A DNA stretch of 64,000 bases from Bacteroidota bacterium (GCA_035505655.1 DATJQP010000063.1:34757-98756); one strand, 5' to 3'. Shown: positions 3,103 to 59,364, counted from the stretch's first letter. Numbers and translations: made by a program. The notes: generated by a model from the sequence alone, not told the origin.

Positions 3103-4815
3103 TTAGTTGCCGGCTAATTTTAGAGTGTAATTCTTGACAAGCTCGACGTTCGTTTTGACCGATGTCAGCTTCGCTAGCGCTTCGAGCTTCCGCTGCATAT
3201 ACGGGAAGCCCTTTTCATTCCTGATTGCCTTCACGATGGCGTCGCGCACGAGAGCAAGATCGATCGGTCGTCCTTCTTCCCTCCCGAGAAGACGGAAGAG
3301 GCCGTAGTATTTGTCGAAGTGGACGGGCCCGAGAACGCTCCCCGAGGGGAGGTTCCAGAGAGTGTCCTTCAGCTCCCCAAAATAGGAAAAGGGAGAGAGA
3401 CCCATGATCCCCCTGTTCTTCGCAGTCCACGAACGCAACGAATACTTCGCAGCGAGATCTCCGAAATCCTCTCCGCTGTCGAGCCGGCGGCGAAGGTTCT
3501 CCGCCGTCTGATCGTCGGCGACGATAATCTCCTGCACGTTCATCTGTCGCTCGCCCGTATAGTAGGCAATGTTCTTCTCGTAGTAGCGCGTGATTTCAGA
3601 GTCGGCCACGGGAACGAGGTCGAGAACCTCGTTTCGTTTGTAGTCGAGGTAGATGTAGTTGGCGAGCGTCGTGTACGTCTCCGCGACATAGGACGTGGTG
3701 TCGTACCCCTTCGCATGGGCTATCCCCATGAGCACATCCTGCATGACGAGGCCCGTGACGGCAAGCTTCAACTGGCGCTCGTTCGTCACGAGCTTGCGGT
3801 CGAACTCGGGCGTCCCGAAGAGTTTTGTTTCGATGTCGGCCTGGCTGTAGACCCTTCCGGCGTATTCAACGCACCGCTGGGAACCTGCGCGGCGTTCCGG
3901 GTTCACCTCATGCAATCCGGATTCGGTCTTTTCGAGGTCGTCATAGATGGCCTTCAGCGCCTTGTCGTTGAATTTCATCTTCTCTCTATTGAAGACGTTT
4001 TTGAGGTATGCCGCCTCGTACGGGGCCTTCTTGTCGATCTTCAGCGCTCGTTCAATCTTTCGCTTCATGTTCAGGAAACCATACTCTGTCGCGAAGGGGT
4101 CCTCGACTCTCCCGTCGACACGGATGATGCTGTACCCCTCCGCCGTCCTCACCGGACGCGAGACTTCCCCCACTTTCAGCGAGTAGGCAACACGCTCAAA
4201 CTCGGGGTCCGTTTGCCCCCACGTGATATAACCAAGATATCCGCCGTTGTTCCTCAACGTGGTATCCGTGAAGACCTGCTTTGCGAGCTCCTCAAAGCTG
4301 ACACCGATTTTCACGAGATGATAGAGGTTTTCGGCCTCCTTCTCGGTCGCGGCATAGAGGTGTCGCACTGCGATCTTGACCTTCGATCGTTGGTACGCTT
4401 CCCGGAGTTCGCGATCCGTCACGGTGATCTTCGCGTAGACTTCCTGGTCCTTAAGGAAGGCAAGGACCGTTCTCGTCCAGGCGGAGGCAAGCTCCTTCTT
4501 GTATTCGGGATCACTGTACACTTTGGCGTTATCGTCGTACCGTCTCAGGAGGATTTCGTTCACCATATTGTTGAGAACGGCGTAGCGCGCCCTTACGTTG
4601 TCCTGGACGCCGGTGAAGACGAGGTAATCTTCGTACCTCGACTTGAAATCGTTGTACGAAAGAGCGCTGTCGCCGACCCACGCCACGGTCGTCGCGGAGT
4701 CGGGAATCGTCGGAGCGGACTCTGCGAGGGTCGGGATGAGCATCCATACGCAGAGCGAGGCGAGTAGGGAGATCATCATTCGCCTGCGGTTTGCCCGATG
4801 AAACCTGTCAGTCAT
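3103..4815 (-). CDS. SurA/PpiD-like periplasmic chaperone with two parvulin-type peptidyl-prolyl isomerase domains
   Basis: Two PPIase-like blocks: VRHLYAATEKEAENLY...GGYLGYITWGQ and MNVQEIIVADDQTAENLRRRLDSGEDFGDLAAKYS...GIMGLSPF. N-terminal hydrophobic segment. The exact start is uncertain, possibly at MMISLL. Confidence 0.75.
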   Translation of the reverse strand: MTDRFHRANRRRMMISLLASLCVWMLIPTLAESAPTIPDSATTVAWVGDSALSYNDFKSRYEDYLVFTGVQDNVRARYAVLNNMVNEILLRRYDDNAKVYSDPEYKKELASAWTRTVLAFLKDQEVYAKITVTDRELREAYQRSKVKIAVRHLYAATEKEAENLYHLVKIGVSFEELAKQVFTDTTLRNNGGYLGYITWGQTDPEFERVAYSLKVGEVSRPVRTAEGYSIIRVDGRVEDPFATEYGFLNMKRKIERALKIDKKAPYEAAYLKNVFNREKMKFNDKALKAIYDDLEKTESGLHEVNPERRAGSQRCVEYAGRVYSQADIETKLFGTPEFDRKLVTNERQLKLAVTGLVMQDVLMGIAHAKGYDTTSYVAETYTTLANYIYLDYKRNEVLDLVPVADSEITRYYEKNIAYYTGERQMNVQEIIVADDQTAENLRRRLDSGEDFGDLAAKYSLRSWTAKNRGIMGLSPFSYFGELKDTLWNLPSGSVLGPVHFDKYYGLFRLLGREEGRPIDLALVRDAIVKAIRNEKGFPYMQRKLEALAKLTSVKTNVELVKNYTLKLAGN

Positions 4816-5944: not shown

Positions 5945-5989
5945 GAAAAAATGAAGAATCTTGAAACGATGGCAAAAAGCGACCCATCG
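5945..5989 (-). terminator. Candidate intrinsic terminator after the carbamoyltransferase/SxtJ/DUF5989 operon
   Basis: On the minus strand the stem CGATGG (5984-5989) pairs with CCATCG (5967-5972) across an 11-nt loop, followed by the U-rich tail UUUCAAGAUUCUUCAUUUUUU. It sits about 60 nt downstream of the DUF5989 stop. Confidence 0.4.
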
Positions 5990-6020
5990 CTTCCAAGAAA
6001 TTGGAAGTAAATCGGCAGAC

Positions 6021-6050: not shown

Positions 6051-6209
6051 TTAGAAGAGGGTGTAGATGAACGGAGCCAGGGCGCTCCCTTTCGTGAGGA
6101 CAATGAGGAGCCCAAAGAGAACAAGCACCACCACGATCGGGACAAGCCACCATTTCTTGTTCTCTTTGAGGAACTGAAGATACTCTGCGATGATCCTGAG
6201 CTTGGCCAC
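6051..6209 (-). CDS. DUF5989 (SxtK-like) small membrane protein; not in the supplied ORF track
   Basis: Manual reverse-strand translation gives (GTG)AKLRIIAEYLQFLKENKKWWLVPIVVVLVLFGLLIVLTKGSALAPFIYTLF*, 52 aa. A GGAGGT Shine-Dalgarno sits 5 nt upstream of the GTG. The KKWWL(L/V)P motif followed by one TM helix is the DUF5989 signature. The gene starts 11 nt after the SxtJ-like stop. Confidence 0.7.
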   Translation of the reverse strand: MAKLRIIAEYLQFLKENKKWWLVPIVVVLVLFGLLIVLTKGSALAPFIYTLF

Positions 6210-6220
6210 GGTGGACCTCC

Positions 6221-6652
6221 TTATACCATTTTGTCGTAATCAATTTTCTTTCCGCCCGGCCTCGGAATCCAGTACGATTCCTTCCCGCTTCCGAAACCAG
6301 TGTTGATAAACTTCTTCCCCACCGCCCGCGCAATCGCTCCCAGCGGGGAGAGGACTGTATAGAAAAGAAGGATGAGAATAAGCCTGGAGACAATCCAACC
6401 GAGCGCAAAGGCTATTGCCATCCAGACTACGTACGACCTGTCGAGGAGGCGCGGTTTCGCCCATCCTGCAAGAAGAAGGAGAAGACCCGCGAGCCCGATC
6501 GGCACAATCGCCGACTCAGACCAGTGCTTGATCGAGCCAAGGAGGGCAAGAAGGAGAAATGCGCCACCGACGACGAGCCCGAATTTCCTCAGTTCCAGAT
6601 CCCCCCGCTTCAGTCGCTCAACCTCGTCCCGTACATCGCTAATCCAGCTCAT
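6221..6652 (-). CDS. SxtJ-family membrane protein
   Basis: 143 aa with two TM segments; the N-terminus is MSWISDVRDEVERLKRGDLELRKFGLVVGGAFLLL. It overlaps the carbamoyltransferase stop by 14 nt. SxtJ-like genes classically follow O-carbamoyltransferase genes. Confidence 0.7.
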   Translation of the reverse strand: MSWISDVRDEVERLKRGDLELRKFGLVVGGAFLLLALLGSIKHWSESAIVPIGLAGLLLLLAGWAKPRLLDRSYVVWMAIAFALGWIVSRLILILLFYTVLSPLGAIARAVGKKFINTGFGSGKESYWIPRPGGKKIDYDKMV

Positions 6653-8459
6653 AGACCTCCTTCCATCGGACGTCGTCGTGAAACACCGGCTGAGCCGATT
6701 TCTCCAACACGCAACACCCGAGTACGAGAAGATCGAGATCCGTTCTCATGAAACACTTGTACGCATCGAGAGGTGTCGCGACGATCGGCTCGCCTCTCAC
6801 ATTGAACGAAGTGTTGACAACGACGGGACACCCGGTCAAGTCAAAAAAGGTCGAGATAAGCTTGTGGTAGAGAGGATTGTCCCGTTTGTTCACGGTCTGG
6901 ATCCTGGCGGAATAATCGACGTGCGTCACCGCCGGAATCGTTGACCGGACGATATTGAGCTTCTCGATCCCCCAGAGATTCTTCTCCGCCTCGGTCATGG
7001 CCCGTTGCTTCTCTTTTGCCACATCTGCCACAAGGAGCATGTAGGGACTCTCGCGGTCGAGATCGAACCACTCCTCCGCCTTCTCTGCGAGGACCGACGG
7101 CGCAAACGGACGGAATCCTTCGCGGAATTTAATCTTCACGTTCATCTTCTTCTGCATCTCCGGAGAACGCGCATCCCCAAGGATGGATCGATTGCCGAGC
7201 GCACGCGGACCGAATTCCATCCTTCCCTGGAACCATCCGATGATCCTGCCGTCGGCGATCGCTTGAGCGACATGGCTGCACAGTTCGTCGTTTCCTTTGA
7301 GACGCGTGTACGGGAGGCGATGGGCATCAAGGAATGCCGCGATGTCTTCATCCGAGTACTGAGGACCGAGATACGTCCCCCCCTGCTCGTCGCTCCCCGA
7401 TTTCGGCGGCGCCTGAGCGCCGCGGTAATGGTAATGGGCGATGTACGCCGCACCGATGGCACCTCCTGCGTCCCCCGCTGCGGGCTGAATCCATAGATCG
7501 TCAAAGGTCCCCGAACGAAGGATCCTCCCGTTTGCCACGCAATTCAACGCAACGCCCCCGGCGAGGCAGAGATGCCGCTCCCCCGTCATGCGCTTGACGT
7601 GGCGAACCATTTTCATCATCACCTCTTCGGTGACGACCTGGATTGATGCCGCGAGGTCGAGTTCCCGCTGTGTAAGACGGCTCTCCGGAATGCGAGGAGG
7701 ACCGTCGAAGAGCTCTTCAAATTTCCTGTTCGTCATCGTCAGTCCGGCACAATAATCGAAGTACTCCATGTTCATGACGAACGATCCGTCCTCTTTGAGG
7801 TCGAGGAGGTAGTCGAAGATCTTCCGGGCGTACCGCGGCTCGCCGTACGGAGCCAGCCCCATGACCTTGTATTCTCCCGAGTTGACCTTGAACCCGGTGA
7901 AGTACGTAAACGCAGAATAGAGCAACCCTAACGAGTGCGGGAAATGAATCTCGGAAAGGATCTCGACCCGGTTCCCCCGTCCGGTCCCAATCGAGGAGGT
8001 GGCGAGTTCTCCAACCCCGTCGATCGTGAGGATGGCTGCCTCCGTGAAGGGAGAAGGGAAAAAAGCGGAGGCCGCGTGCGATTCGTGGTGTTCGGGAAAG
8101 ATAACGGGCCCGTTGTAGTCGAGTTCCTTTGCGATGAGATCGGGAACCCAAAGCTTCTCCTGGAGCCAGAGGGGCATCGCCATCATGAACGACTGTATCC
8201 CTCGCGGTGCGAAGGTGAGGTACGTCTCGAGGAGTCGGTTGAACTTCAGCAGCGGTTTGTCATAGAAGGCGACGCAGTTGAGCTCGCTCGCCTTTACTCC
8301 CCCCTCCTCCAGACAGTAGGCAACCGCATGGCGTGGAAAGCGATGATCGTGTTTCTTCCGGGTGAAACGTTCCTCCTGCGCGGCTGCGACAAGCTTGCCG
8401 TCGCGAAGAAGACAAGCCGCCGAGTCGTGATAGTATGCTGAGATGCCGAGGATGTCCAT
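6639..8459 (-). CDS. O-carbamoyltransferase (NodU/CmcH/SxtI family)
   Basis: MDILGISAYYHDSAACLLRDGKLVAAAQEERFTRKKHD... matches the N-terminus of NodU/CmcH. The start was trimmed to the ATG at 8459-8457. The track ORF extends 107 codons further upstream, into the 3' end of the M64 gene. Confidence 0.9.
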   Translation of the reverse strand: MDILGISAYYHDSAACLLRDGKLVAAAQEERFTRKKHDHRFPRHAVAYCLEEGGVKASELNCVAFYDKPLLKFNRLLETYLTFAPRGIQSFMMAMPLWLQEKLWVPDLIAKELDYNGPVIFPEHHESHAASAFFPSPFTEAAILTIDGVGELATSSIGTGRGNRVEILSEIHFPHSLGLLYSAFTYFTGFKVNSGEYKVMGLAPYGEPRYARKIFDYLLDLKEDGSFVMNMEYFDYCAGLTMTNRKFEELFDGPPRIPESRLTQRELDLAASIQVVTEEVMMKMVRHVKRMTGERHLCLAGGVALNCVANGRILRSGTFDDLWIQPAAGDAGGAIGAAYIAHYHYRGAQAPPKSGSDEQGGTYLGPQYSDEDIAAFLDAHRLPYTRLKGNDELCSHVAQAIADGRIIGWFQGRMEFGPRALGNRSILGDARSPEMQKKMNVKIKFREGFRPFAPSVLAEKAEEWFDLDRESPYMLLVADVAKEKQRAMTEAEKNLWGIEKLNIVRSTIPAVTHVDYSARIQTVNKRDNPLYHKLISTFFDLTGCPVVVNTSFNVRGEPIVATPLDAYKCFMRTDLDLLVLGCCVLEKSAQPVFHDDVRWKEVYELD

Positions 8460-8494
8460 GAATTTCCTGAGACCCGGGGTCTCGTCTGCAAACC

Positions 8495-9916
8495 CTATTT
8501 TGAGTAGAAGTCGATCATCCTGTTGATTGCGCCGGCGCACACCGGGTCGAAATCCACAAGACTGAGTGAAAACATACGGCAGTCGAGCGACGGGCGGTAG
8601 AACCCCTTCGAACTGTACCCCGCACCTTCGAAAGCCCCGACAACCCCCTTCAAGGAATCTACCGTCAGGGCGCGATGCTCTGCGTCGAGGATCATTTGCC
8701 GCTTTTCGGCATACCCTTTCTCCTCCCGGCGGAGGTTGCCCCGGGCCGCCTCCATACTGTCGTAGAGCTGCTTGTTCCACGGAGTTGGGAGTGGAGTTTT
8801 TGCGTCAACGAGGCCAGCCCATTTCAGCCCTGTCCGCGATACGTCGACGGCAATATTCGGTTCCCATGGCTCGACGCCCTTTGGGTAAAAGTCATTGTAG
8901 GCGACGGACGAGGAGTAGTATTCGTCTCCAAGTCCCGCAAAACAATGGCCGAACTCATGGACGAAGACATAGTCTGCCTGCCATGCCGTCTCCGGTGTCT
9001 CGCCGGTGGCGTAGCACGTGGCGTAGAGCTGGAAAATTCCTCCTCCGCCGTAGCGGCCGACGTTGACGAGGATGAACATGAAGTCGTAGGGTGCAAGGGC
9101 GGCGTAGTCTCTAATTTCCGCGTTGTCGTCCGACAGAACATAGCGGGCCGAGCCGAAACTATTGTATGACGTCCCGAGCGCATTCCCGGTCCAGATGCCG
9201 CGGTCCGGCTGGTTGATCCCCGACCGGCGTGACACCACTTCTATCGCCCGAACGTTGAATTCCTTTTTTCTCGACTTGAACGGTTCCGTCCCGAGAAGCA
9301 CGTTTGTGAAATGCTTCGCGTCCGCCCGGAACTTCGGCATGTCGGCGGCGGAATAGCCGTCGCCGAGAATGACGATGTCTACCTTCGAATGGCTATCACC
9401 ATGCACTTCGATGTCGTCCACCTTTGCTTCCCGACGGCTCGCTTCGCGGCGGACCTCTTCTCCGTTCGGATCAATGACCGCGGAGAAGAGCTCATCAAAC
9501 GCCATCTCTTTGTTCCTGCCGAAGATCCTGAGCTGGACCTTGCCCTTCGGGAAAGGGAACCGGACCGTCTCATGAAATGTCCTCCAGACCCCTGCGAGAG
9601 CCTCGTCGGTCGTCTGCCACTCGTGAAAGAGCGAAGAGAATCCGCGCGAGTAGAGTACCTTGTCCGAGCGGTAGTCTACGACCTCAAAACAATACTCTCC
9701 GAGGTTCAGCGTGTCGAGGAGTTGAGTCGTGCTTCCCGGCCACTCTCCTTCTTCATACATCTTGTCGGAGGTGAATCGTTCTTCGCCCTTCGTCCCGGAA
9801 TGATAGTAGTCAAACCGGAACGTGGAGTCTTTGAAGAAACGGTCGAACTGGCTTTTCGCGTTTGTCGCCGCAAAGAGGACGAGGAGCGACATCAAAAGCA
9901 GACGCAATCGAATCAT
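8495..9916 (-). CDS. Peptidase M64 family (IgA-peptidase-like) zinc metallopeptidase, secreted
   Basis: Signal peptide MIRLRLLLMSLLVLFAATNAKSQ. The HEFGHCFAGLGDEY zinc motif and overall layout fit M64_N plus the M64 catalytic domain. Confidence 0.8.
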   Translation of the reverse strand: MIRLRLLLMSLLVLFAATNAKSQFDRFFKDSTFRFDYYHSGTKGEERFTSDKMYEEGEWPGSTTQLLDTLNLGEYCFEVVDYRSDKVLYSRGFSSLFHEWQTTDEALAGVWRTFHETVRFPFPKGKVQLRIFGRNKEMAFDELFSAVIDPNGEEVRREASRREAKVDDIEVHGDSHSKVDIVILGDGYSAADMPKFRADAKHFTNVLLGTEPFKSRKKEFNVRAIEVVSRRSGINQPDRGIWTGNALGTSYNSFGSARYVLSDDNAEIRDYAALAPYDFMFILVNVGRYGGGGIFQLYATCYATGETPETAWQADYVFVHEFGHCFAGLGDEYYSSSVAYNDFYPKGVEPWEPNIAVDVSRTGLKWAGLVDAKTPLPTPWNKQLYDSMEAARGNLRREEKGYAEKRQMILDAEHRALTVDSLKGVVGAFEGAGYSSKGFYRPSLDCRMFSLSLVDFDPVCAGAINRMIDFYSK

Positions 9917-11889
9917 CGCTTCACCTTTATGAGTCCGGACTGGAGAATACTTCTCGTAGCGTTATCCTGCACGAAGGCCAGCAGGTAGAGCCGGCTTGGG
10001 TCGATCTCCGACTTCCTCTCCTTGAACACTCCTCCCGGATGACCCTCGTTCGCCTCATACTCCGAAAGATACTTGTCAAGTTGATCTTCCACGGAAGAGA
10101 TCTTGAACGCGTCTCTGACGGTGGCTTTTCCGCTTGCCGTGAAGGCGACTCCGCCGGCGCCACGGATCATTTTTCGGACCACAAAACGATGCTCGGAGAT
10201 ACCGTTAAGGCCGGTGTATCGGATCGGATCCTCCAGGAGAACAATCCTGAGGCGGGCAGACTTCCTGGCTTTGAAAATTGTCGCGGAGATCGCGAAGGAG
10301 ATCCGGCCTCGCCTCATTCTGGCCGACATCCGGATACTTGCCTGGGGCGGTTCCAGAAGCGCCTTCTCGATTTGCTCTGCATAGACGGCGAACTTGTACT
10401 TCGCGGATGTCCCCGGTCCGCCGCTTGGGTTCACCTCCGTTCCCTCAATGATGGAGGTCGGAGTACTTCCGACATGGTAAAAGGTTTCCCGCGAGAGATC
10501 ATCTCCGTTCACCAGAGGGTCCGGACGCGGACCATGAAGATTGTACTCTGCAATGACAAGTTCCGATCGGTCGAAACGCTCGAGGAGCTTGTCGTATGCG
10601 ATATCAACCGCCTGGCAGGGGCGTGACTCCGTCCCTGTGAACAATTCAGCAAGAACGACGCGTCGTGCGGAGCCCTCCGTTGACGAAGAGGAACGATCGT
10701 ATTTGTCGGGAAAGAAGTCGATGATCCTTCGCTGGGCCGCGGTGATGAGGGAATCGAGGGAGGAATGAGGAGCGAGATCCTTCTGAAGGAGGGCAAGCGG
10801 CCTCATGATCGACGCCTGCTTTCCTACGGCAGCGGCGTCAAGATAGGTCGCGAACGCCTGATCCTTCTTCCCCTGTTTCTCCTGGCTCGATCCGAGCAGA
10901 GAATACAGCTCGGTTTCGTTTGGTGGGATCGTTCTGGTTGCTTCCGCAAGATACTTTTCAGCTTCGGCGTACTGCTCCCTGTTGTACAGAACGACGCCGA
11001 GAGCGTAAGCCGCGTTGGAGCGGTTTTCGATCGGGCTCTGTTTCACCTGATCGTACGCCTGCCGGGCGAGTTCCTCGGCTTTCGACAAGAGAACGTGGTT
11101 TCTCGCATATTGGGCCGCGACGTAGCTTTTCCCCCGTGCCAGATCATGTTCGCGTGCAAGGTACTCCATGCCGACAGCGCCGAAGAGGCTATCGCGGACT
11201 CGGACGCCGGCGGTTGAGTCTTTGAACGCCCCCCTGACGAGAGAATCGAGTTCGCCGTATTCCAGAACAGGTTGGGTCGAGACAAACCGCGCGTGAACAA
11301 CGCTGCGAAGTCCTGCGAGCTTCTCACCCTGCGCGAGCTGGATTACTCCCAGCTGCTCGTAGTAGTTGCCGTACCTCGCCTCGAACTTCGTCGCAGGAGG
11401 AAGAATCGCCATCGCTCCCGTCTGGGTCGATTCTGCCTCGGCATAGCGCTCAAGCAGATAAAGGATCCAGGCCCGCGTGTAAAGCATGGAAGGATTCGGC
11501 CTGCCGTAACGCTTTTTGTAAAGCGAAATGGAAGAATCGATAAGGACGAGCGCCGTGTCGGGAAACCTTCTCCTTACACCAAGTTCCATCGCCTTATCCT
11601 GGAGCGCTACGCTGAGACTTTGAGAGTCCCTCGATGCCAGGTACTGGTGAAGAGAAAAGAAGGCGGCACTGTCCTGATGCATCGAGAGAAGAAGACTGAA
11701 GCGGGCTCCGTATGCCTCGCCCGCCTTGCCGGTTTGCGGCGATGTTCCGATGAACCTGTTGAGTTCTTCGAGCCGGGCGCTGTCGGACGGAGGGGCGGCG
11801 TTCCGCCCGAGATGTTCCGTTTGTCCGTGGCTGTAGGCCGGAAAGAGAAGAAGAAAGGAGATGAGCAAAACCTGTGGGGGAATTTTCAT
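9913..11889 (-). CDS. Hypothetical secreted protein with TPR-like repeats and a C-terminal thioredoxin-like region carrying a single Cys (TGTESRPC)
   Basis: Start trimmed to the ATG at 11889, which gives the signal peptide MKIPPQVLLISFLLLFPAYSHG. The stop overlaps the M64 start as ATGA, and the start overlaps the MFS stop as ATGA. The central region is helical-repeat-like. Confidence 0.5.
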   Translation of the reverse strand: MKIPPQVLLISFLLLFPAYSHGQTEHLGRNAAPPSDSARLEELNRFIGTSPQTGKAGEAYGARFSLLLSMHQDSAAFFSLHQYLASRDSQSLSVALQDKAMELGVRRRFPDTALVLIDSSISLYKKRYGRPNPSMLYTRAWILYLLERYAEAESTQTGAMAILPPATKFEARYGNYYEQLGVIQLAQGEKLAGLRSVVHARFVSTQPVLEYGELDSLVRGAFKDSTAGVRVRDSLFGAVGMEYLAREHDLARGKSYVAAQYARNHVLLSKAEELARQAYDQVKQSPIENRSNAAYALGVVLYNREQYAEAEKYLAEATRTIPPNETELYSLLGSSQEKQGKKDQAFATYLDAAAVGKQASIMRPLALLQKDLAPHSSLDSLITAAQRRIIDFFPDKYDRSSSSTEGSARRVVLAELFTGTESRPCQAVDIAYDKLLERFDRSELVIAEYNLHGPRPDPLVNGDDLSRETFYHVGSTPTSIIEGTEVNPSGGPGTSAKYKFAVYAEQIEKALLEPPQASIRMSARMRRGRISFAISATIFKARKSARLRIVLLEDPIRYTGLNGISEHRFVVRKMIRGAGGVAFTASGKATVRDAFKISSVEDQLDKYLSEYEANEGHPGGVFKERKSEIDPSRLYLLAFVQDNATRSILQSGLIKVKR

Positions 11890-13145
11890 GCCTGAGTCAT
11901 TGATGATTGAACCATCGTACGTCTTTTGTTCATGACCTTGTACATCGCTCCCCCGGCCACGGCGCAAACGGAACCGCCGACCGCGACCGCGGATCGAACG
12001 CCGACGGCGTCGGCCAAATATCCTATCGCGAGGCTGCCGAACGGAAAGAAACCCTGGAAGACCAGCGCGTAAAGACCCATGACGCGTCCGCGGAGAGCGT
12101 CGGGTGCCGTCGTTTGAAGCGTTGAGTTGGCCGTCGCGAAAAACGAAATCAGTCCCATCCCCACTCCCACGAGGCAGAGCATCGATAAGAGCGCCGAAGT
12201 CGAAACGGAAAAGATGAGGAGCGAGGCTGAAAAAACCGCCAACCCGCCATAGATGAACTTGCGCGGCGGAACGCTCTGCGCAACGGAGGCAACCGTCAAA
12301 GCGCCGATGAGGGCCCCGATACCGTTGGCACTCAGGAGGTTCCCGAGCCCCATCGCCCCGATTCCAAGGATCCTGTCGGCAAAGATCGGAAGCAGCACTG
12401 CGTAGGACCAGCCGAACACGGTCACCACGCCGATGAGCATCATGAGAGCTTCGAGGACTTTCTCCGAGCGGACATACGCCACGCCATCTTTGATCGCACG
12501 GAGAACGGTCGTGTCCTGACCGCCCCGGGGTTTCTCTACGACGTCCATCATGAGGAGCCCGACAATCACCGCAATGAATGACACTCCGTTAAGAAAAAAG
12601 CACCAACCTACTCCGAAGAGTCCGATGATGATCCCTCCGATGGCCGGCCCGAACATACGGGCACCGTTGAATATTGCCGAGTTGAGCGCAATAGCGTTTG
12701 AGAGATCTTTCTTTCCGACCATCTCGACGACAAATGACTGCCGAGTAGGCATGTCAAAAGCATTGACCAGTCCCAGAGTGAAGGCCAGAATTCCAACGAC
12801 CACCGGCGTAATGAGTCCCGACCAGTAGAGCCCCGCAAGGACGAAGGCCTGCACCATCGAGGCAGTCTGGGTCGCGATGATGAGGGGCTTCTTTTTCATC
12901 TTGTCGGCCAGCGTTCCGCCGAACATGGAAAACAGGAGCACCGGGATTGAATTTAGGAAGCCCACCGTTCCGAGCCATACCGCCGAATGAGTCAGCTCGT
13001 AGACGAGCCAGGCCTGGGCGATATTCTGCATCCATGTCCCGATGAGGGACAGGAGCTGACCGAAAAAGAAAAGACGATAATTCCGATGGTGGAGCGACCG
13101 GAACGCCGGAAACGTCATCAGATACCGGAGGAATCGCATGATCAC
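11886..13145 (-). CDS. MFS transporter, putative exporter
   Basis: 12 predicted TM helices; the N-terminus RNYRLFFFGQLLSLIGTWMQNIAQAWLVYELT is typical of MFS_1/EntS-like exporters. The GTG start (13145) overlaps the upstream stop as GTGA; an ATG lies 2 codons in. Confidence 0.85.
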   Translation of the reverse strand: MIMRFLRYLMTFPAFRSLHHRNYRLFFFGQLLSLIGTWMQNIAQAWLVYELTHSAVWLGTVGFLNSIPVLLFSMFGGTLADKMKKKPLIIATQTASMVQAFVLAGLYWSGLITPVVVGILAFTLGLVNAFDMPTRQSFVVEMVGKKDLSNAIALNSAIFNGARMFGPAIGGIIIGLFGVGWCFFLNGVSFIAVIVGLLMMDVVEKPRGGQDTTVLRAIKDGVAYVRSEKVLEALMMLIGVVTVFGWSYAVLLPIFADRILGIGAMGLGNLLSANGIGALIGALTVASVAQSVPPRKFIYGGLAVFSASLLIFSVSTSALLSMLCLVGVGMGLISFFATANSTLQTTAPDALRGRVMGLYALVFQGFFPFGSLAIGYLADAVGVRSAVAVGGSVCAVAGGAMYKVMNKRRTMVQSSMTQA

Positions 13146-14386
13146 GACCGTCGACCAGCCTCGCTCCCCGGCACGATCACTTTCACCGCCTCGACCCTCG
13201 TCTTTGTCGCGCGGACGATCTGAATGTCCAACCTGTTCACTTTGACAGTCTCTCTTTCCGCCGGTATCCGTCCGAGCGTGTGAACGATGAGGCCGGCCAC
13301 CGTTTCGTACGGCCCATCGGGAATCTCCCGGGGGGCAATCGACCTCAGCTTCTCAATCGGGGTTTTCCCGCTCACGAGGTACGCTCCCTCCTGCGTCTTC
13401 ACGATCTCCTCCTCGGACCCCGACTGGTCGTCCGAGATTTCTCCGAGGAACTCCTTGAGGATGTCTTCCGTGGTCACGACACCGGCGGTACCTCCAAACT
13501 CGTCGACGACGACGGCGAGAGAGACCTTCTTTGCGCGGAAGTCACGAAGAAGATCGGAACAGTTTTTCGTCTCCGGAACAAAGACCGTCTCCCTGAGAAT
13601 CTGGCTCAGCGTTCTCGGGAACGCGAAGAAATCCCTCGCGAAGACCACCCCGACGATGTTATCGATCGAGCGCTCGTAGACGAGAAGACGTGAGTAGCCG
13701 CGCTCGGCAAGAACCTGCCAGGCCTGCCGGACAGGGGTCTTGAGGTCGACCGCAACGACATCGGTGCGAGCCTTCATGATGTCCTTTGCAAGAACATCGC
13801 TCAGCGTGATGACCTTGATGAACTTTCTTCCCTCTTCTCTCCCCACCACCCCGACATCTTCACTCTCCTTGAGAAGGAGTTCGAAATCTTTCTTGTGGAG
13901 AAACCTCCCGACCGGCGTTCGTTCGTATCCAAGGACGGAGACGATAAACCTCGATGACTGGTTTGTCACCCAGACAAGGGGCCAGAGGACAAACCGGGTA
14001 GTGTCGAGAAAGAAAGCAGCGTACGAGACCACCGCGTCGGCAACCATCCGGAGGAGCGACTTGGGGATCAGCTCGCCGAAGATGAGGATGACGAATGCGA
14101 CGACGATTGTGATGGGCGTGTCGGTCCAATGGAACAACGACTGTAAAAGAATCGCAGCGGCGGATGAGAAGGCGATGTTGACGATATTGTTTCCGACAAG
14201 AACGGTCGTCAAATATTCTTCCGGCGAATTGGCGAATGCCAACGCAAGGGATGCTCCGAACTTCTTCCCTCTTGCCCGAACCTGTAGCTTGGTCTTGTTG
14301 GCAACAATGAAGACGATCTCAGACGAGGAATAGAGTCCGCTGAAGAGGAGCAGCACCACAAGTAATGTTATCTGCAGAGCCATCAA
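13142..14386 (-). CDS. Hemolysin-family/CNNM protein (DUF21 TM domain, CBS pair, CorC_HlyC)
   Basis: The N-terminal 4-TM DUF21 reads LQITLLVVLLLFSGLYSSSEIVF...NNIVNIA. CBS-type segments and a CorC/HlyC-like C-terminal transporter-associated domain follow. Confidence 0.85.
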   Translation of the reverse strand: MMALQITLLVVLLLFSGLYSSSEIVFIVANKTKLQVRARGKKFGASLALAFANSPEEYLTTVLVGNNIVNIAFSSAAAILLQSLFHWTDTPITIVVAFVILIFGELIPKSLLRMVADAVVSYAAFFLDTTRFVLWPLVWVTNQSSRFIVSVLGYERTPVGRFLHKKDFELLLKESEDVGVVGREEGRKFIKVITLSDVLAKDIMKARTDVVAVDLKTPVRQAWQVLAERGYSRLLVYERSIDNIVGVVFARDFFAFPRTLSQILRETVFVPETKNCSDLLRDFRAKKVSLAVVVDEFGGTAGVVTTEDILKEFLGEISDDQSGSEEEIVKTQEGAYLVSGKTPIEKLRSIAPREIPDGPYETVAGLIVHTLGRIPAERETVKVNRLDIQIVRATKTRVEAVKVIVPGSEAGRRS

Positions 14387-17537: not shown

Positions 17538-19025
17538 CTAGGACCGGAAAAACAAATACCAGACGACAACAAAACTTGGCAGAAGAATCGGCAGCGTGAA
17601 GCGGACGACATAGCCAATGAATGACGGCATCCTCACGCCGCTCTCTTCCGCGAGCGAGCGCACGACAAAATTCGGCCCGTTGCCGATGTACGTGCAGGCT
17701 CCAAAGAAAACGGCGCCTGCCGAAATCGCCCGCACCACGGCCGGGTGGTTGGCGATGAGATACGCGGTTTCAATCCTTGCCGCCGGCGTCCCTCCCGATC
17801 CAACCAGGCCGGAGTTTTGTCTCAGGAGCAATTCAACGGCTGCCGAAATTTCCTTCCCTCCCATTAGCACCCCGCCGCTCGCGATCGATTGACGGATCAT
17901 TTCCACCGCGTTCTGCGGAACCAATCCAGCAACCGCCGCGGCCAGAAAATTCAGATATGTCGGAGCATTGTCGAGGAAGCTCGACGCAACACCCGTCCCC
18001 CAAAAATACACCCCCAGATGGCCCTCTCCGAGGAGCTGGGAGTGGAGTCGAAGCCAATCGACGGCAGGGATCATCGCGGCAAAAATACCCGCGAAGAGGA
18101 TTCCCACCTCCTTTAAGGGACCGATGCTGAAACCATTCTCCTCGTGGACCTTCGCGGAGGTCGTAGCATACGAACCTATGGCCGCCCCGAGCATAAGCAG
18201 CTCACGCGCGAACCTTGGCTCCTCTAGAAAGGACGAGGCGAGAATCACTCCCAGAAAGAATAGATTGTGCAGCCCGGAGAATCCCGCAGTTTCATGAATT
18301 TCCGATCGCGGGATGGCGTCCGGCCCAGCCTCAAACCTTCGCAGACTGCCGAAGTCGAGAATCGCGAAGACAGCCAGCAAGAAAACTATTTCAAAGAGCC
18401 ACACCGTCCAGAGGTTCTCCAGCACCCAGAAGAACGGGATCCCTCTCAGGAATCCGAGGAACAGAGGCGGATCTCCGATCGGCGTGAGCGCCCCGCCAAC
18501 GTTGCTCACCAGGAAAATGAAGAATACCACATGAAACGCCCGCAACCGATAGCGGTTCACCCGAAGGTACGGGCGGATCAGTATCAGGGATGCGCCCGTC
18601 GTACCGATCAGGTTTGCCGCGACGGCCCCCGCTGCGAGCATTCCCACATTCGCAGCAGGACTCGATTTGCCGCGGAGACGAATCAGAATTCCGCCGGAGA
18701 CGACATAGAGTGAGCCGATGAGGATGATGAAGCTGAGATACTCCATTCCTGTCTCCAGGACCTCCGACCCGCCGTCCGCGACGATGAATTCATACAGAAG
18801 CGCGGCACCGCCAAGAGCGAGCGCGATAACCGGGTAGTATCTCTTCCACCACGCGGAATTGACGAACGGCAGCACAGCCATCGCCGCAAGGAGTGCAACG
18901 AACGGCAGTACTGCGAGCGTGGAGCCGATCTCCGGCCCATCCCCTGCACCAGCCATTGCCAAAGAACAACACAGTCCGGAAAGGACTGAGATAAAGACAA
19001 CCCTTGCGAAAATCCTCCCCGTCAT
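17538..19025 (-). CDS. nhaD: NhaD/ArsB-superfamily Na+/H+ antiporter-like permease, embedded between nuoM and nuoN
   Basis: Polytopic permease with IT-superfamily-type motifs (LILIRPYLRVN...SNVGGALTPIGDPPLFLGFL). It lies 6 nt after the nuoM stop and 20 nt before the nuoN start. The same gene order is reported for the Rhodothermus marinus complex I cluster. Confidence 0.65.
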   Translation of the reverse strand: MTGRIFARVVFISVLSGLCCSLAMAGAGDGPEIGSTLAVLPFVALLAAMAVLPFVNSAWWKRYYPVIALALGGAALLYEFIVADGGSEVLETGMEYLSFIILIGSLYVVSGGILIRLRGKSSPAANVGMLAAGAVAANLIGTTGASLILIRPYLRVNRYRLRAFHVVFFIFLVSNVGGALTPIGDPPLFLGFLRGIPFFWVLENLWTVWLFEIVFLLAVFAILDFGSLRRFEAGPDAIPRSEIHETAGFSGLHNLFFLGVILASSFLEEPRFARELLMLGAAIGSYATTSAKVHEENGFSIGPLKEVGILFAGIFAAMIPAVDWLRLHSQLLGEGHLGVYFWGTGVASSFLDNAPTYLNFLAAAVAGLVPQNAVEMIRQSIASGGVLMGGKEISAAVELLLRQNSGLVGSGGTPAARIETAYLIANHPAVVRAISAGAVFFGACTYIGNGPNFVVRSLAEESGVRMPSFIGYVVRFTLPILLPSFVVVWYLFFRS

Positions 19026-23530: not shown

Positions 23531-23638
23531 GTCGCAGCGTTGGGGAGTCACACCTTCCGGTAGGCGCACCGGCTCGAAGTCAATGGGGGAATTGCGCAGT
23601 TGACCGCGGGGGGACGGCTCAACTTGAAAGGGGCGATC

Positions 23639-25153
23639 ATGAACTCACGGCTTGTCAGTTCCTTCTCCGGCATTCTTCTCTTCTGTGTATCACTCGCCAT
23701 CGGACAGTCGGACGGCCCGTTCTATAAGGTTGACACGCTGACAGCAGGTCCATTCAATGACCTCCATCCGCGTTCGCAGAACGGCTGGTCCGGAGCTGGT
23801 ACCGGGCTCAACGATTGGATCGTGTTCGAACGCCAATCAGATTCGTTGGCGATGATCGCGGCGATGAGACGACCCCGAAGCTCTCATGCGTGGGATACGC
23901 TTGTCGAGATTGTTTCTTCGTCTCCTGCATCTGAAACGCAGGCTCTCCCTCAGATCGTCTTTTCGAACCACCCTCCGTGTCTCATCGGGGTGTGGCAGAA
24001 GCGGACCGACGGCAAATGGGGCATCTGGTATTCATGGCAAAAAGGGGATACGACCGTCTGGAGCGATCCCGCAAGGGTGACTCGTGATAGCGTGGATTGT
24101 ACGAGCCCGCATGGAGCGAATTGGGAAGACACTGCCTCTCTCATCACCTGGAGGCGGGGAAAGGCGATCCTTGGGACTTTTCTTTCTCAAAGTTCCCTGG
24201 GTTCGCCAGAAAGCGCCGCTCCGCCGGAGACGCTCGCAGTCTCCAATGACGATTCTCTTGAGTATGACCTGGGATTTTCCATTGGGACGGCGGGCATCGT
24301 TTGGACCGTGAAGGACAGCTCTGGCGGCCGCCTCCTCCTCACTCGCCAAATCAACTCCTATCCTTTCTTCTCGCTCTCTGTTCCTGAGACCCTCGCCGCC
24401 CGAGGAAGCGTCTTGAATCCAAGGGTTGCCTCACCATACTACTCGGCATACGGTCCCTACTTCTATGAACGTCTGGTGGGCGGCCGGCACGAGGTGCACT
24501 TCGCGAGCACAGCCTCCGACGAGCTGATCTCCTCCGATTCCTCCGTCGATTTCCGCAATCCTGTCGTGTTCGAATCTCCGGTCGTCACCGCGGGGACAGC
24601 TTCAGCGGAGGATGCTGGGATCTTCTGGTATGGCTCTTATGTGGTCGAAGCGTACAGGCACGGTGACTCCACCCTCTTCTTCCAAGAAGATGATCAGCCT
24701 ATTGATACTGTCCGAAGCGCTGGCCACAACCGTGATGCGTGTTTCGGATCGATGATTTTCTACGATCCGCTTTATCATCAGACAGTCATCCCGATCGTCT
24801 GGGAAAGTAATCGGAGCGGGAGGTGTCATCTTTACACGAGGATGGCCGCGGTCCCACTGGGACTCGTGAAGCAGGAAAACTCGGTGGCAAAGGATTTCGG
24901 CCTCGACCAGAATTTTCCAAACCCTTTCAACCCGTCCACCAGCTTTCGCTTTCATATAGGTCATCCCGCAGAAGTCTCGATCGCTATTTTCGATATCCTT
25001 GGGAGGATGGTGAAGACACTCATTGCTCAGAGACTTGGAGCCGGCGACTACACGGTCACATGGAATGCGGGAACGCGATCAAGCGGGATCTACTTCTGCA
25101 GGATGAGAGCGGGTGATTACACCGAAATAAGAAAGCTATTGCTCGTCAAGTAA
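23639..25153 (+). CDS. Secreted protein with a T9SS (Por) C-terminal sorting domain; N-terminal function unknown
   Basis: Signal peptide MNSRLVSSFSGILLFCVSLAIGQ. The C-terminal FPNPFNPSTSFRFHIGHPAEVSIAIFDILGRMVKTL...GIYFCRMRAGDYTEIRKLLLVK matches Por_Secre_tail. The start was trimmed from 23600. Confidence 0.7.
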   Translation: MNSRLVSSFSGILLFCVSLAIGQSDGPFYKVDTLTAGPFNDLHPRSQNGWSGAGTGLNDWIVFERQSDSLAMIAAMRRPRSSHAWDTLVEIVSSSPASETQALPQIVFSNHPPCLIGVWQKRTDGKWGIWYSWQKGDTTVWSDPARVTRDSVDCTSPHGANWEDTASLITWRRGKAILGTFLSQSSLGSPESAAPPETLAVSNDDSLEYDLGFSIGTAGIVWTVKDSSGGRLLLTRQINSYPFFSLSVPETLAARGSVLNPRVASPYYSAYGPYFYERLVGGRHEVHFASTASDELISSDSSVDFRNPVVFESPVVTAGTASAEDAGIFWYGSYVVEAYRHGDSTLFFQEDDQPIDTVRSAGHNRDACFGSMIFYDPLYHQTVIPIVWESNRSGRCHLYTRMAAVPLGLVKQENSVAKDFGLDQNFPNPFNPSTSFRFHIGHPAEVSIAIFDILGRMVKTLIAQRLGAGDYTVTWNAGTRSSGIYFCRMRAGDYTEIRKLLLVK

Positions 25154-56052: not shown

Positions 56053-59000
56053 CTACTTCAGCAACATCAACTTGGTCGTAGCGACGAAGCTTCCGGACTC
56101 CATCCTGGCAAAATAGACACCGCTGGAATACCTCCCGGCGTTCCACTCCACGGTGTACGTTCCCGGATTGAGCTTCCCGTTCACGAGCGTCGCCACCTCC
56201 CTTCCGAGAATGTCGTAGATCCTCAACGTCACCGGGCGCGCAGCGGCAATCGAGAACCGCAGTTTCGTCGAGGGGTTGAACGGATTAGGATAGTTCTGCC
56301 CGAGCGCGAAGGTCGTCGGCAACACGGTCGGGACCTCCGTCACCGAGATGGCGATGTTGTCGGTTCCCCCAGCGTCGAGGTAGCGCTGTTTGAACTCCTG
56401 AAGGTAAAGGTTCGCTACTCTCTTGCTGTGAAGGATGAGCGTGTTTTCATCGTTCGCCGTTTCGGCGGAACTTGACCAGTTGTGCGACCCGGTGATGACG
56501 ATGTTCGACTCCGAGGGGATGTCGGCGTCAACGATCGCATACTTGTGATGCAGCAGACCGTTGAGACTCGCCGCTTTGAGAAGAACGTCGACCCCGGCAT
56601 TTTTGAGGGTAGCGAACTCGTTGCCGGTGTCGGTGTTGTTGTCCAGCACGACGCGCACCTTCTCATTCTCGCCTTTCTCCGCGATGAGAGCTTGTGCAAG
56701 GTCGTCCCTCGTAAACGTCAGCATGCAAATGTTGACGGAAGATTTCGCCGAGCTTACCGCCGTGAGGATCTTCGATGTCGTCTTGTCCGAGGGGCTGAAA
56801 TACGATTCGACAGGAATCCCGCCGATGACAAACCTGTGCGGCGTGATGTCGGACTTTCTGTAGCCGAAACGCGAAGCAGTCTGGTTGGGACTGTCTCCGC
56901 TGCTCCCCCACATTTGGTTGAACTCGACAGTGTAGGCCTCGGCCAGCGACCGATCCTGGATTTCGACCATATTCTGAGCGTCATTGTTGGTGCCCGGGTC
57001 GGTGGCGTTCCAGGAGCCGGTGACGACCCAATCGATGCGGGTCGCCGAAGTATCCCGATGATCGAAGACGTAGAACTTATTATGCATGAGCCCCGCCCCC
57101 GCATCGACAGCGTCGTAGGCGTCGTCGATGACGACGATCCCGGCACTCCTGAGCGTCCCCCAGGGAGCGGTGGTGATATTGTCGTGTTCGCCGATGACCC
57201 GGATCTTGACGCCGCGGTTGTGCGCGGCGAGAAGCGCCGCCGCAATATTGGCCCCGACAGTCCCGCTGAAACTGTAGGTGCACATGTCAATCGAGCGTTG
57301 CGCCTGGCCGATGCGGTAGAGAAGCACTTTGGAGAGGTCGGTTGTTTTGGCGCTTTCCGCAAGGGCAACCGAAAAATTTACCGTCTTGTTGAAGTAGATC
57401 CTCAGCGAATCGCTCGACGTTGAGCCGCTGATGAAAATCGCGTCGCCCGTTGCATCCGACCCGGAGTTGTCACTGGCCACCACCTGGTAGTGATAGATCG
57501 TCGAAGGAACGAGGTTCTTCAGGAGAACGGAGTGGGCCGTGTCGGAACCAACATTTACAGAATCTGTGTACGAAGTCGTCGTGCCGTACCGCACAGTCTC
57601 AGTTGAAGCGGTAACCGTCGGCGCAACGATGGTCACCGAAGTCGGAGTAATGCCGGTCTCGTACGGGATTCCCTTATAGACCGGTCCGGGGTGTACGATG
57701 ATGTCGGCCGGCGTCCGGGGATCGACCTCGTAGTCCGCCGTGTACGGCGCTGCCGCCGTTTGCTTGAACTGCTTGAGGATTCCTATGAGGTCAAACGTTC
57801 CGGTCGGCGGAGTCCAGGTGGAGGGAAGGTAGCACGACGTCGTCCCGGTCGCATCGGTGATCGGTCCGGCGGTCCCCGGAGTTCCAGCATAGGTGACGTT
57901 GTTGATTCTTACCAATCTTCCCTCGTCGGGTTCCGTGTAGACGTCTGTGTTGAATGTCTCGTTGACGTCGTGCGCCGTAAGGAGAAACGGAGCGGGAAGA
58001 GGGTTGCCGCTTGAGTGGAGGAAATATTTCGTGGAGTCGAGTGAAACTTCCAGGAGACCGTGAAATTGAGTAATGGTTCCTGTAACGGTGATGCTGTCTC
58101 CGACTTGGTAGTTGTACGACCTGAAGGGCCGATAGATGCACACTCCCGCCGTGGCGTCCTGGACAAAAATGTTGGTGTACGAAGCGCTGAAATCTCCGGT
58201 GACAACACCGGACACTGACACCGTAGCACCAACCTGGTACGGCGCCGCCTGCACTCCGAGGGAATCGTTGACATGGAGGTCTATGATCGGAATTACTTTG
58301 ATCACAGCAACATTGAGGTTCGAGCTGATTCTCACCGGCACGCCGCCGTTCAGGGCGCTCAGGACGTTGAACTGGCAAGTGAGGGCAGAGTCCGGAGCCG
58401 TCACCGAGGCAATGACGATGATCCCCGTATCCGAATCCGTCACCGAAGCATGTCCGACCTGAATCGTGTCCCCCACGACCGTCACGTGTCCCGCCGCAGC
58501 TCCTCCCCCAACGGTGACGCTCGCCGCAGACTGGGACCACGTCAGCCCGTCGGGGACAACGATAACGAGGCTGTCGAGGGTGTTTACCCCGTCGCCGGCG
58601 ACTTCAATGGTAAATGAGCCGGTTGTGCCCGCCTGAATGAAGGTCGGAGCGATCGCCGCGGATCCGGTCCCGTTCCCGCCGACCGTGAGCGAGGGTTCGA
58701 CAGGGCTAGCGCTGTTTTGCGGCTGGGGAGACGTGCGGACGACAAAATCACTGGAGTTGTTGTCCGAGTCGTATCCGTTCCCGGCGAACTCATCGCTTCC
58801 CCCAGCCGCCAGTGTCAGCGCCGTTGAGGAGGAATTCGCCTTTCGCTCCACGGAGGTCGAGTTGCTCGGAGCGGGAGTCGGTCCGCTCCCTTCGTAGCCA
58901 TTCGCCGTGCCGTACCCTACCCTGTCGATCACTGAAGATCCGGTCGGGTTGGCCCCGCTCAGAGCGGTTGTGCTGTTCACGAGCGCGATCTTTCCCGCCG

Positions 59001-59364
59001 TCGAACTCATGGCAAGCGTTCCGGAGACGTCGGGCGTCGGAAGTCCTGCCGTGCCGCCGCTGCCGACGGCCTCTCCGACGAGAAAGAAACCATGGGGCGC
59101 TATCGTACCGGTGAGATTGGTCACCAGCCACGAGCCTGTGCCCGTTGCCGAAGCGTACTGGACCGACCAGCCGCTCAGGCTCACCGTCGACGAAGTCGGG
59201 TTGTAGAGTTCGACAAAATCGTTTTTGTAGTACGCGCCGGAATTTCCCCCTCCGCCGTAGACTTCACTGATGACGACATGGTTCGCGGTTTGAGCGTGCA
59301 CAAGAGTGAGCAGAGAAACCGAGAGGATGATGCCGGCGGCAATCGACTCTAGAATTTTTCGCAT
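56053..59364 (-). CDS. T9SS-secreted multidomain protein: lamin-tail domain, OB-fold, FN3-like domain, PLD-superfamily domain with two HKD motifs, Por C-terminal domain (candidate extracellular nuclease)
   Basis: Signal peptide. The LTD reads HVVISEVYGGGGNSGAYYKNDFVELYNPT...GWSVQYASATG. The OB-fold-like block reads YQVGATVSVSGVVT...IFVQDATAGVCIY...ITVTGTITQFHGLLEV. The FN3-like block reads TSYTDSVNVGSDTAHSVLLKNLVPSTIYHYQV. The two HKD motifs are GLMHNKFYVFD...GSWNAT and GLLHHKYAIVD...GSHNWS. The C-terminus NYPNPFNPSTKLRFSI...GVYFARMESG...KLMLLK is Por_Secre_tail. Confidence 0.75.
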   Translation of the reverse strand: MRKILESIAAGIILSVSLLTLVHAQTANHVVISEVYGGGGNSGAYYKNDFVELYNPTSSTVSLSGWSVQYASATGTGSWLVTNLTGTIAPHGFFLVGEAVGSGGTAGLPTPDVSGTLAMSSTAGKIALVNSTTALSGANPTGSSVIDRVGYGTANGYEGSGPTPAPSNSTSVERKANSSSTALTLAAGGSDEFAGNGYDSDNNSSDFVVRTSPQPQNSASPVEPSLTVGGNGTGSAAIAPTFIQAGTTGSFTIEVAGDGVNTLDSLVIVVPDGLTWSQSAASVTVGGGAAAGHVTVVGDTIQVGHASVTDSDTGIIVIASVTAPDSALTCQFNVLSALNGGVPVRISSNLNVAVIKVIPIIDLHVNDSLGVQAAPYQVGATVSVSGVVTGDFSASYTNIFVQDATAGVCIYRPFRSYNYQVGDSITVTGTITQFHGLLEVSLDSTKYFLHSSGNPLPAPFLLTAHDVNETFNTDVYTEPDEGRLVRINNVTYAGTPGTAGPITDATGTTSCYLPSTWTPPTGTFDLIGILKQFKQTAAAPYTADYEVDPRTPADIIVHPGPVYKGIPYETGITPTSVTIVAPTVTASTETVRYGTTTSYTDSVNVGSDTAHSVLLKNLVPSTIYHYQVVASDNSGSDATGDAIFISGSTSSDSLRIYFNKTVNFSVALAESAKTTDLSKVLLYRIGQAQRSIDMCTYSFSGTVGANIAAALLAAHNRGVKIRVIGEHDNITTAPWGTLRSAGIVVIDDAYDAVDAGAGLMHNKFYVFDHRDTSATRIDWVVTGSWNATDPGTNNDAQNMVEIQDRSLAEAYTVEFNQMWGSSGDSPNQTASRFGYRKSDITPHRFVIGGIPVESYFSPSDKTTSKILTAVSSAKSSVNICMLTFTRDDLAQALIAEKGENEKVRVVLDNNTDTGNEFATLKNAGVDVLLKAASLNGLLHHKYAIVDADIPSESNIVITGSHNWSSSAETANDENTLILHSKRVANLYLQEFKQRYLDAGGTDNIAISVTEVPTVLPTTFALGQNYPNPFNPSTKLRFSIAAARPVTLRIYDILGREVATLVNGKLNPGTYTVEWNAGRYSSGVYFARMESGSFVATTKLMLLK

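Follow-up and report, generated by a model that had tools for sequence, protein, structure and literature searches.

The genes at positions 6051 to 8459 of a 64,000-nucleotide stretch of DNA from a Bacteroidota bacterium (GCA_035505655.1, DATJQP010000063.1:34757-98756; the whole stretch is called the window below), which encode an O-carbamoyltransferase, an SxtJ-like protein and a DUF5989 protein, are assigned by sequence comparison to a self-contained, widespread carbamoyltransferase cassette of the SxtI/J/K type. This trio is probably an autonomous unit, and the four genes directly upstream, for a CNNM membrane protein, a major facilitator superfamily (MFS_3) transporter, a tetratricopeptide repeat (TPR)/thioredoxin-like protein and an M64 peptidase, would then be its neighbours by descent in one narrow clade of uncultured Bacteroidota. 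A preliminary description of this DNA had proposed one dedicated system made up of the trio, the MFS transporter, the TPR/thioredoxin-like protein and the M64 peptidase. The comparison of gene neighbourhoods spoke against this proposal: the adjacency was found in one clade only, and the parts are split in related lineages.

The carbamoyltransferase, SxtJ and DUF5989 genes

The three genes of the cassette were located as follows.

6051-6209, minus strand, DUF5989 gene, 52 aa (Pfam PF19451)
6221-6652, minus strand, SxtJ-like gene, 143 aa (Pfam PF19588)
6639-8459, minus strand, carbamoyltransferase gene, 606 aa (Carbam_trans_N and Carbam_trans_C)

The product of 6639-8459 is classified, from homology, as an O-carbamoyltransferase of the NodU/CmcH/TobZ/SxtI class, and its activity is predicted on the same basis. 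The N-terminal Kae1/ASKHA-like domain (PF02543, E = 5e-103, profile positions 2-345 of 346) and the C-terminal YrdC-like domain (PF16861, E = 2.5e-74, profile positions 1-170 of 170) were both matched, and the motifs HHESHA (residues 124-129) and GPRALGNRS (residues 417-425) are intact. The full-length relatives in the PDB were GdmN, NovN and TobZ (E = 1e-97 to 1e-82); the score for the NodU equivalog of NCBIfam was 145.7 against a cutoff of 1000. The homologues number in the thousands, the best 120 being 69-100% identical. Enzymes of this class form carbamoyl-adenylate from carbamoyl phosphate and ATP in the YrdC-like C-terminal domain, and the carbamoyl group is then moved to a hydroxyl group in the Kae1-like N-terminal domain. 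The same chemistry, that is, carbamoyl-phosphate- and ATP-dependent O-carbamoylation via carbamoyl-adenylate, would be expected of the window protein from knowledge of the family, as the homology with TobZ, GdmN, NovN and NodU/NolO covers the full length of the Kae1-like and YrdC-like parts. To our knowledge, those enzymes, of which the three with solved structures (TobZ, GdmN and NovN) belong to antibiotic pathways, work as soluble tailoring enzymes on their own, with no SxtJ or DUF5989 partner.

The assignment of the 143-aa and 52-aa open reading frames (ORFs) to SxtJ and DUF5989 was checked, and both scored above the Pfam gathering threshold. The SxtJ-like protein matched PF19588 with 39.9 bits (cutoff, 24.4; E = 8e-10), and its homologues are annotated as SxtJ. 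The AlphaFold2 model (pLDDT, 84.7) is all-helical, with hydrophobic helices at residues 18-41, 46-65 and 67-110. When this model was compared with the PDB by Foldseek, no match with E ≤ 0.001 was obtained, and the best hits were ExbB/TolQ-like helices (E of about 2). In a library of 1.8 billion proteins, the SxtJ family formed 4823 clusters at 50% identity, nearly all of them stand-alone proteins of about 140 aa. The DUF5989 protein matched PF19451 with 88.3 bits (cutoff, 27; E = 3e-25; profile positions 2-49 of 49); it has one predicted transmembrane helix and occupies the position of SxtK, 11 nt after SxtJ. The two small membrane partners had been said to have no assigned function, and the literature searches agree with this view: no mention of DUF5989 was found, and the SxtJ literature that was found consists of saxitoxin or suomilide work without experiments on function.

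Occurrence of the trio in other genomes

A scan with the carbamoyltransferase, with one genome per species, gave 80 loci (L002-L081; 64-80% identity) from phyla including Ignavibacteriota, Calditrichota, KSB1, Verrucomicrobiota, Nitrospirota, Acidobacteriota and Deferribacterota, and from deltaproteobacterial metagenome-assembled genomes. The trio had been described as recurrent, and this survey found it widely across phyla. The SxtJ gene is the next gene after the carbamoyltransferase gene in 79 of the 80 loci. In 60 of these 79, over many phyla and in the same register, the two genes share an identical 14-nt overlap (ATGAGCTKGATTAR; positions 6639-6652 of the window), which argues for translational coupling and a fixed stoichiometry of carbamoyltransferase and SxtJ. 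The near-invariant N-terminus of SxtJ, MSWI..DV, is partly encoded within the last codons of the carbamoyltransferase gene. With a hidden Markov model (HMM) built here, DUF5989 was detected in 50 of the 80 loci, usually 3' of SxtJ and sometimes 5' of the carbamoyltransferase gene; no DUF5989 was detected by HMM search within 10 kb in the Melioribacter/Stygiobacter-type group (see below). The same-strand order of the window, carbamoyltransferase, SxtJ and then DUF5989, is that of most of the 80 loci. Unsupervised clustering of the flanking ORFs gave no further family, beyond the carbamoyltransferase and SxtJ, in more than 14 of 79 loci.

Comparison with known systems

In the sxt clusters, sxtI, sxtJ and sxtK are 1839, 405 and 165 nt long, and sxtK follows sxtJ (PMC2679770). 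The window genes have the same order and similar sizes (1821, 432 and 159 nt), the proposed SxtI motif GPRALGRS appears in the window as GPRALGNRS, and the Pfam family of SxtJ is matched; the 52-aa protein is tentatively equated with SxtK (54 aa) by size, position and the RefSeq naming of such trios. The three sxt genes are assigned to the carbamoylation of decarbamoyl-saxitoxin (PMC2679770; PMC12300590). For SxtJ and SxtK, reviews and a 2026 preprint still go no further than calling them "hypothesised to work in conjunction" with SxtI. The genes sxtJ, sxtK and sxtL also occur together in the suomilide gene cluster (PMC10157211), and the GDSL/SGNH genes beside the trio in other genomes (see below) parallel sxtL beside sxtIJK. 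However, the host of the window is not a cyanobacterium, and the acceptor cannot be decarbamoyl-saxitoxin. RefSeq-annotated trios of the same order are also found on plasmid PALBO1 of Paludisphaera borealis PX4 and plasmid pPL62-1 of Planctomyces sp. SH-PL62. Their SxtJ proteins are about 35-39% identical to that of the window over part of the protein, and the trio stands there in an exopolysaccharide locus, whereas the window trio stands after the M64 gene and before a LacI gene.

Gene arrangement upstream of the trio

The four genes upstream of the cassette were located as follows.

8495-9916, minus strand, gene for a secreted M64 zinc metallopeptidase, 473 aa (M64_N and Peptidase_M64)
9913-11889, minus strand, gene for a secreted TPR protein, 658 aa (TPR_2, E = 9e-7)
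11886-13145, minus strand, MFS_3 transporter gene (EntS-like), 417-419 aa (Pfam MFS_3, E = 2e-61)
13142-14386, minus strand, gene for a CNNM/CBS/CorC_HlyC membrane protein (Pfam)

The identities given in the preliminary description for the carbamoyltransferase, SxtJ-like, DUF5989, M64, TPR, MFS and CNNM genes were all confirmed with Pfam. The seven genes from CNNM to DUF5989 lie back-to-back on the minus strand, in agreement with the public gene calls, and the junction distances were as previously described: a GTGA overlap between CNNM and MFS (or 2 nt of separation when translation begins at the ATG two codons further downstream, the start chosen in the public gene call), ATGA overlaps between MFS and TPR and between TPR and M64, a 35-nt spacer between M64 and the carbamoyltransferase, the 14-nt overlap with SxtJ, and an 11-nt spacer before DUF5989. 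The close packing that had been claimed for this run was thus found, but its supposed start at CNNM was not, since short gaps (58, 73, 20 and 6 nt) go on upstream through yjeF, nuoN, a CitMHS_2 transporter gene and nuoM, all co-directional. The genes from CNNM to DUF5989 are part of a tightly spaced co-directional string of more than 20 kb that starts in the nuo operon, and the sole sizeable gap in this string is the 179 nt 3' of DUF5989. Because the same criterion would draw in yjeF and the NADH-dehydrogenase genes, spacing says little on common function here. The CitMHS_2-type gene (17538-19025) is an insertion between nuoM and nuoN that is kept in the clade of the window and in locus L085.

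Neighbourhood comparison

For the trio-centred test, the window proteins were used as tblastn queries against the 80 trio loci. M64, TPR, MFS, CNNM, yjeF and nuoN were found in L002-L007 only. These six are closer to the window than any other of the loci (carbamoyltransferase identity, 76-80%), they form a single clade with the window in a neighbour-joining tree of the carbamoyltransferases, and a stretch of about 20 kb is collinear in them, with nuoN, CitMHS and yjeF through LacI, the peptidyl-prolyl isomerase (PPIase) gene and the TonB receptor gene. M64 was found in none of the other 74 trio loci; the upstream sequence reaches 1.5 kb or more in 69 of these and 3 kb or more in 52. According to a Pfam tally of the 115 genes that directly flank the trio in loci outside the clade, the families were AA_kinase (11), OTCase (10), GDSL lipase (10), GT2 (4), Polysacc_synt (3) and MFS_3 (2; L040 and L061), with no M64. 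The check for recurrence beside the trio thus gave M64 in 6 of 80 loci, all of one clade; M64 and the trio were not found together in the 74 other trio loci or in the 77 other M64 loci of the following test.

The M64-centred test covered 80 loci from metagenomes, each with an M64 homologue (45-100% identity) at its centre. The trio adjoins M64 in L082-L084 only, which are the window's own contig and two members of its clade. None of the other 77 M64 loci has the trio, and the carbamoyltransferase and the TPR protein are missing from all 77. Among them, MFS was found in L085, and L158 has a weak (40%) match about 8 kb away from M64. A regular partner of M64 was not found: no family occurs in more than 15 of 79 M64 loci. 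The TPR protein was found in L002-L007, L083 and L084 only. TPR and M64 were also considered as a conserved pair, and this was rejected outside the clade, since M64 stands without TPR in L085 and in the other M64 loci.

Three arrangements show the parts in other combinations. In L085, nuoN, yjeF, a VanZ-like gene, MFS_3 and M64 are followed by a homocysteine methyltransferase gene, and the trio is absent. In L061 and L040, yjeF, (VanZ and) MFS_3 are followed by the carbamoyltransferase, SxtJ (and DUF5989) genes without TPR and M64. In L003, CNNM, TPR, M64 and the trio are present without MFS. The VanZ-like gene takes the place of CNNM in L085 and L061. The simplest reading of these comparisons would be a conserved backbone of nuoN, yjeF, a variable gene and MFS, with variable cargo after MFS, which in the clade of the window is TPR and M64 and then the trio. 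As MFS tracks yjeF in every case, it fits a gene of the backbone. The CNNM, M64 and TPR genes are, on these comparisons, placed among the neighbours and not the components of the cassette, TPR being confined to the clade. The MFS_3 gene of L061 (2173-3415) is split into two overlapping ORFs (frameshift/pseudogene or assembly error).

Contexts of the trio elsewhere and the putative acceptor

In 11 Melioribacter/Stygiobacter-type loci (L010, L013, L015, L016, L018, L023, L025, L029, L031, L032 and L044; around 10001-13300 in the full-length loci), the carbamoyltransferase-SxtJ pair stands between a carbamate kinase gene (directly upstream) and an ornithine carbamoyltransferase gene (directly downstream), which fits the supply or use of carbamoyl phosphate. 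Further upstream, these loci also have GlmS and a cobW-like gene. About 17 loci encode GDSL/SGNH proteins beside the trio or within it. Forms of about 370-400 aa were found in L008, L012, L037, L041, L053 and L079 (in L079, between SxtJ and DUF5989), and forms of about 640-720 aa, with a membrane anchor at the N-terminus and TPR repeats at the C-terminus, in L035, L048, L051, L055, L056, L058, L059, L068, L071 and L077. The window was searched for an SxtL-like GDSL/SGNH gene with an HMM made from genes that adjoin other trios; the search gave TPR cross-matches only and no such gene.

Genes of polysaccharide synthesis were found near several trios. The trio of L162 lies within a Wzy/Wzz/Poly_export locus. 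In the two cultured Planctomycetes (L165, 9925-13058; L166, 8740-11859), the plasmid-borne trio lies in a locus with exosortase, EpsI, tyrosine-kinase and glycosyltransferase genes and is directly followed by a sugar O-acetyltransferase gene. Other neighbours were WbaP-like sugar transferases (5 loci), GT4 (5 loci), GT2 and Wzx-type flippases. A second, divergent carbamoyltransferase gene lies a few kb from the trio in some genomes (L162, 8001-17818; L066, 18160-19854), and both carbamoyltransferases of L162 are inside the polysaccharide locus.

These contexts favour a membrane-proximal glycan precursor as the acceptor; this is a guess that we consider possible, although somewhat less than even in likelihood. 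The carbamoyltransferase would be made in step with the 143-aa multi-helix membrane protein, and the 52-aa single-helix protein usually follows. SxtJ and DUF5989 would retain the soluble enzyme on the cytoplasmic side of the inner membrane, and may possibly also present a membrane-bound acceptor. The group to be carbamoylated would be the hydroxyl of a sugar in an envelope or exopolysaccharide precursor that is lipid-linked or membrane-proximal.

Evaluation of alternative explanations

The arrangement of the window could be explained by one system of seven genes from CNNM to DUF5989, in which a small molecule, glycan or peptide would be carbamoylated, exported by MFS, and processed outside the cell by the M64 and TPR proteins. 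The stop/start overlaps, the short spacers, the lack of a convincing terminator within the run and the gene order kept in 8 clade loci are in line with such a system. However, the adjacency is limited to one clade in which the whole 20 kb or so is collinear, M64 and the trio are not found together in any of the 74 other trio loci or 77 other M64 loci, the parts are separated in L085, in L040/L061 and in the clade member L003, and the spacing criterion would likewise take in yjeF and the nuo genes. We consider this explanation very unlikely. A slim chance is given to the related possibility that the cassette was recruited, in this lineage alone, into a real seven-gene unit: a product carbamoylated at the membrane would leave the cell through MFS_3, and the TPR/thioredoxin-like protein and M64 would mature or release it extracellularly. 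A tie of the trio to MFS_3 alone, which would export the carbamoylated product, with TPR and M64 as an unrelated insertion between them, is an unlikely reading as well. In its favour, MFS_3 orthologues (53-57% identity) lie directly 5' of the trio without TPR and M64 in L040 and L061, MFS_3 lies upstream of TPR, M64 and the trio in the window's clade, and the sxt cluster pairs sxtI/J/K with exporters, though of the MATE type. Nevertheless, L085 has yjeF, VanZ, MFS and M64 without the trio and L003 has the trio without MFS, MFS_3 accounts for just those two of the 115 immediate neighbours outside the clade, and it goes with yjeF throughout.

The roles assigned to sxtI/J/K in saxitoxin synthesis and the presence of sxtJ, K and L in the suomilide cluster could also suggest that the trio serves as a module of a saxitoxin-, suomilide- or banyaside-type secondary-metabolite cluster and tailors a soluble natural product. 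Against this, Pfam scans across the window detected no core sxt genes (sxtA-type PKS-like enzyme, amidinotransferase sxtG and others); no gene for a nonribosomal peptide synthetase, polyketide synthase, amidinotransferase or other sxt-type protein lies within 60 kb, and housekeeping genes are found instead (nuo, PBP1, lipid A acyltransferase, SecDF and YchF in the Pfam scans). Furthermore, many phyla that are non-toxigenic have a carbamoyltransferase of 64-80% identity, and this suggests a primary or envelope function that has been conserved. We give this module the smallest chance of the explanations considered.

Several points weigh against an autonomous, membrane-associated cassette acting on a glycan precursor. 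The order TPR, M64, trio is kept in 8 of 8 clade loci, with M64-carbamoyltransferase spacers of 35-48 nt; this order and the short spacers make co-transcription with the cassette likely, and in this clade the neighbours are probably co-transcribed with it. The carbamoyltransferases of L040 and L061 do not belong to the window's clade in the tree, and both loci have MFS_3 directly 5' of the trio, a possible sign of a connection with MFS. As for the acceptor, no polysaccharide genes were detected beside the trio in the window by Pfam scans, the contexts of the trio elsewhere are heterogeneous (cytochromes and cargo of the type IX secretion system among them), and the trio's cyanobacterial homologues are assigned to saxitoxin (PMC2679770; PMC12300590), which is a soluble alkaloid. 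The tethering of the enzyme to the membrane by SxtJ and DUF5989 is a role that we infer.

Promoter and terminator signals

With a consensus scan for sigma-70 promoters and terminators, in which Bacteroidota-type promoters are not modelled, no convincing internal promoter or terminator was found from CNNM to DUF5989, and terminator-like matches were no commoner than in shuffled sequences. The following signal lies in the 179-nt gap after DUF5989.

5945-5998, minus strand, candidate weak terminator (hairpin 5959-5998 with a U-rich tail)

A hairpin and U-tract terminator had been claimed here. The hairpin (14 bp, imperfect) and the U-rich stretch are present, but the folding energy does not differ from that of shuffled sequences (z = -0.71), and the consensus scan flagged a weak site at 6027-6013 alone. 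A TTGACA box (5943-5938) lies 3' of the hairpin, ahead of LacI. The spacer between M64 and the carbamoyltransferase contains a GC-rich hairpin (GAGACC-CCG-GGTCTC, 8467-8481) without a U-tract after it; it was dropped as a regulatory element because it is not conserved among the eight clade members.

Other proteins and genes of the window

The M64 peptidase has both domains of the IgA protease-type family M64 in full length (M64_N, E = 1.3e-36; Peptidase_M64, E = 8.5e-79), a signal peptide, and the HExxH zinc motif as HEFGH at residues 320-324; HEFGH, with H320, E321 and H324, is invariant in an alignment. The gene stands alone in nearly all relatives, and nothing links M64 to carbamoylation.

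The TPR protein had been described as a secreted protein with TPR and thioredoxin-like parts. The TPR part stood; the thioredoxin-like part has no Pfam match and rests on sub-threshold Omp28 matches and the CRPC motif of the orthologues. Its C-terminal half matched the NCBIfam model Omp28_seleno with 25.4 bits (E = 8.5e-6) against a cutoff of 200, and Omp28 was likewise below its cutoff; Pfam gave no match to the C-terminal 260 aa even at E ≤ 10, and a sequence search of the PDB gave designed TPR proteins only. Six orthologues have CRPC throughout (FTGSECRPC; motif, FTGxxCRPC), and in the window the motif is FTGTESRPC (SRPC at 10615-10626), the first Cys being replaced by Ser. The Ser codon is TCA, one base off TGA, and the best weak NCBIfam match is the Omp28-related selenoprotein family. 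The CNNM protein is GldE-like, with a score below the cutoff (NCBIfam GldE, 222.7 bits; cutoff, 376).

Downstream of the trio, LacI and TonB-dependent receptor genes had been described in succession. Both are present, but a PPIase gene (3103-4815; two rotamase domains, SurA/PrsA-like) lies between them. Distantly similar PPIase genes stand directly upstream of the carbamoyltransferase gene in the Ignavibacterium-type loci L058, L069, L071 and L077. Por_Secre_tail domains, which are sorting domains of the type IX secretion system, were found in two window proteins (23600-25153 and 56053-59364), one of which has 1103 aa with PLD-like and LTD domains; they indicate that the host has this secretion system. 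Scans of the whole window with Rfam (gathering thresholds) and for tRNA gave no matches.

Significance

As the specific claim of carbamoylation, export and peptidase action in one system fails, the locus does not call for particular follow-up for that reason; recruitment of the cassette into a seven-gene unit, if true, would mean a lineage-specific carbamoylation-plus-proteolysis pathway without a described counterpart. The window gives no special handle on the function of the trio, which is a worthwhile problem of a known kind. The value lies in the trio itself, with about 4,800 SxtJ clusters, an enzyme 64-80% identical across distant phyla and an overlap conserved to the nucleotide. The GDSL/SGNH partners, the exopolysaccharide loci and the carbamoyl-phosphate enzymes beside it provide concrete hypotheses on the trio, and the cultured carriers Paludisphaera borealis, Stygiobacter electus, Ignavibacterium and Melioribacter would be suited to testing it.

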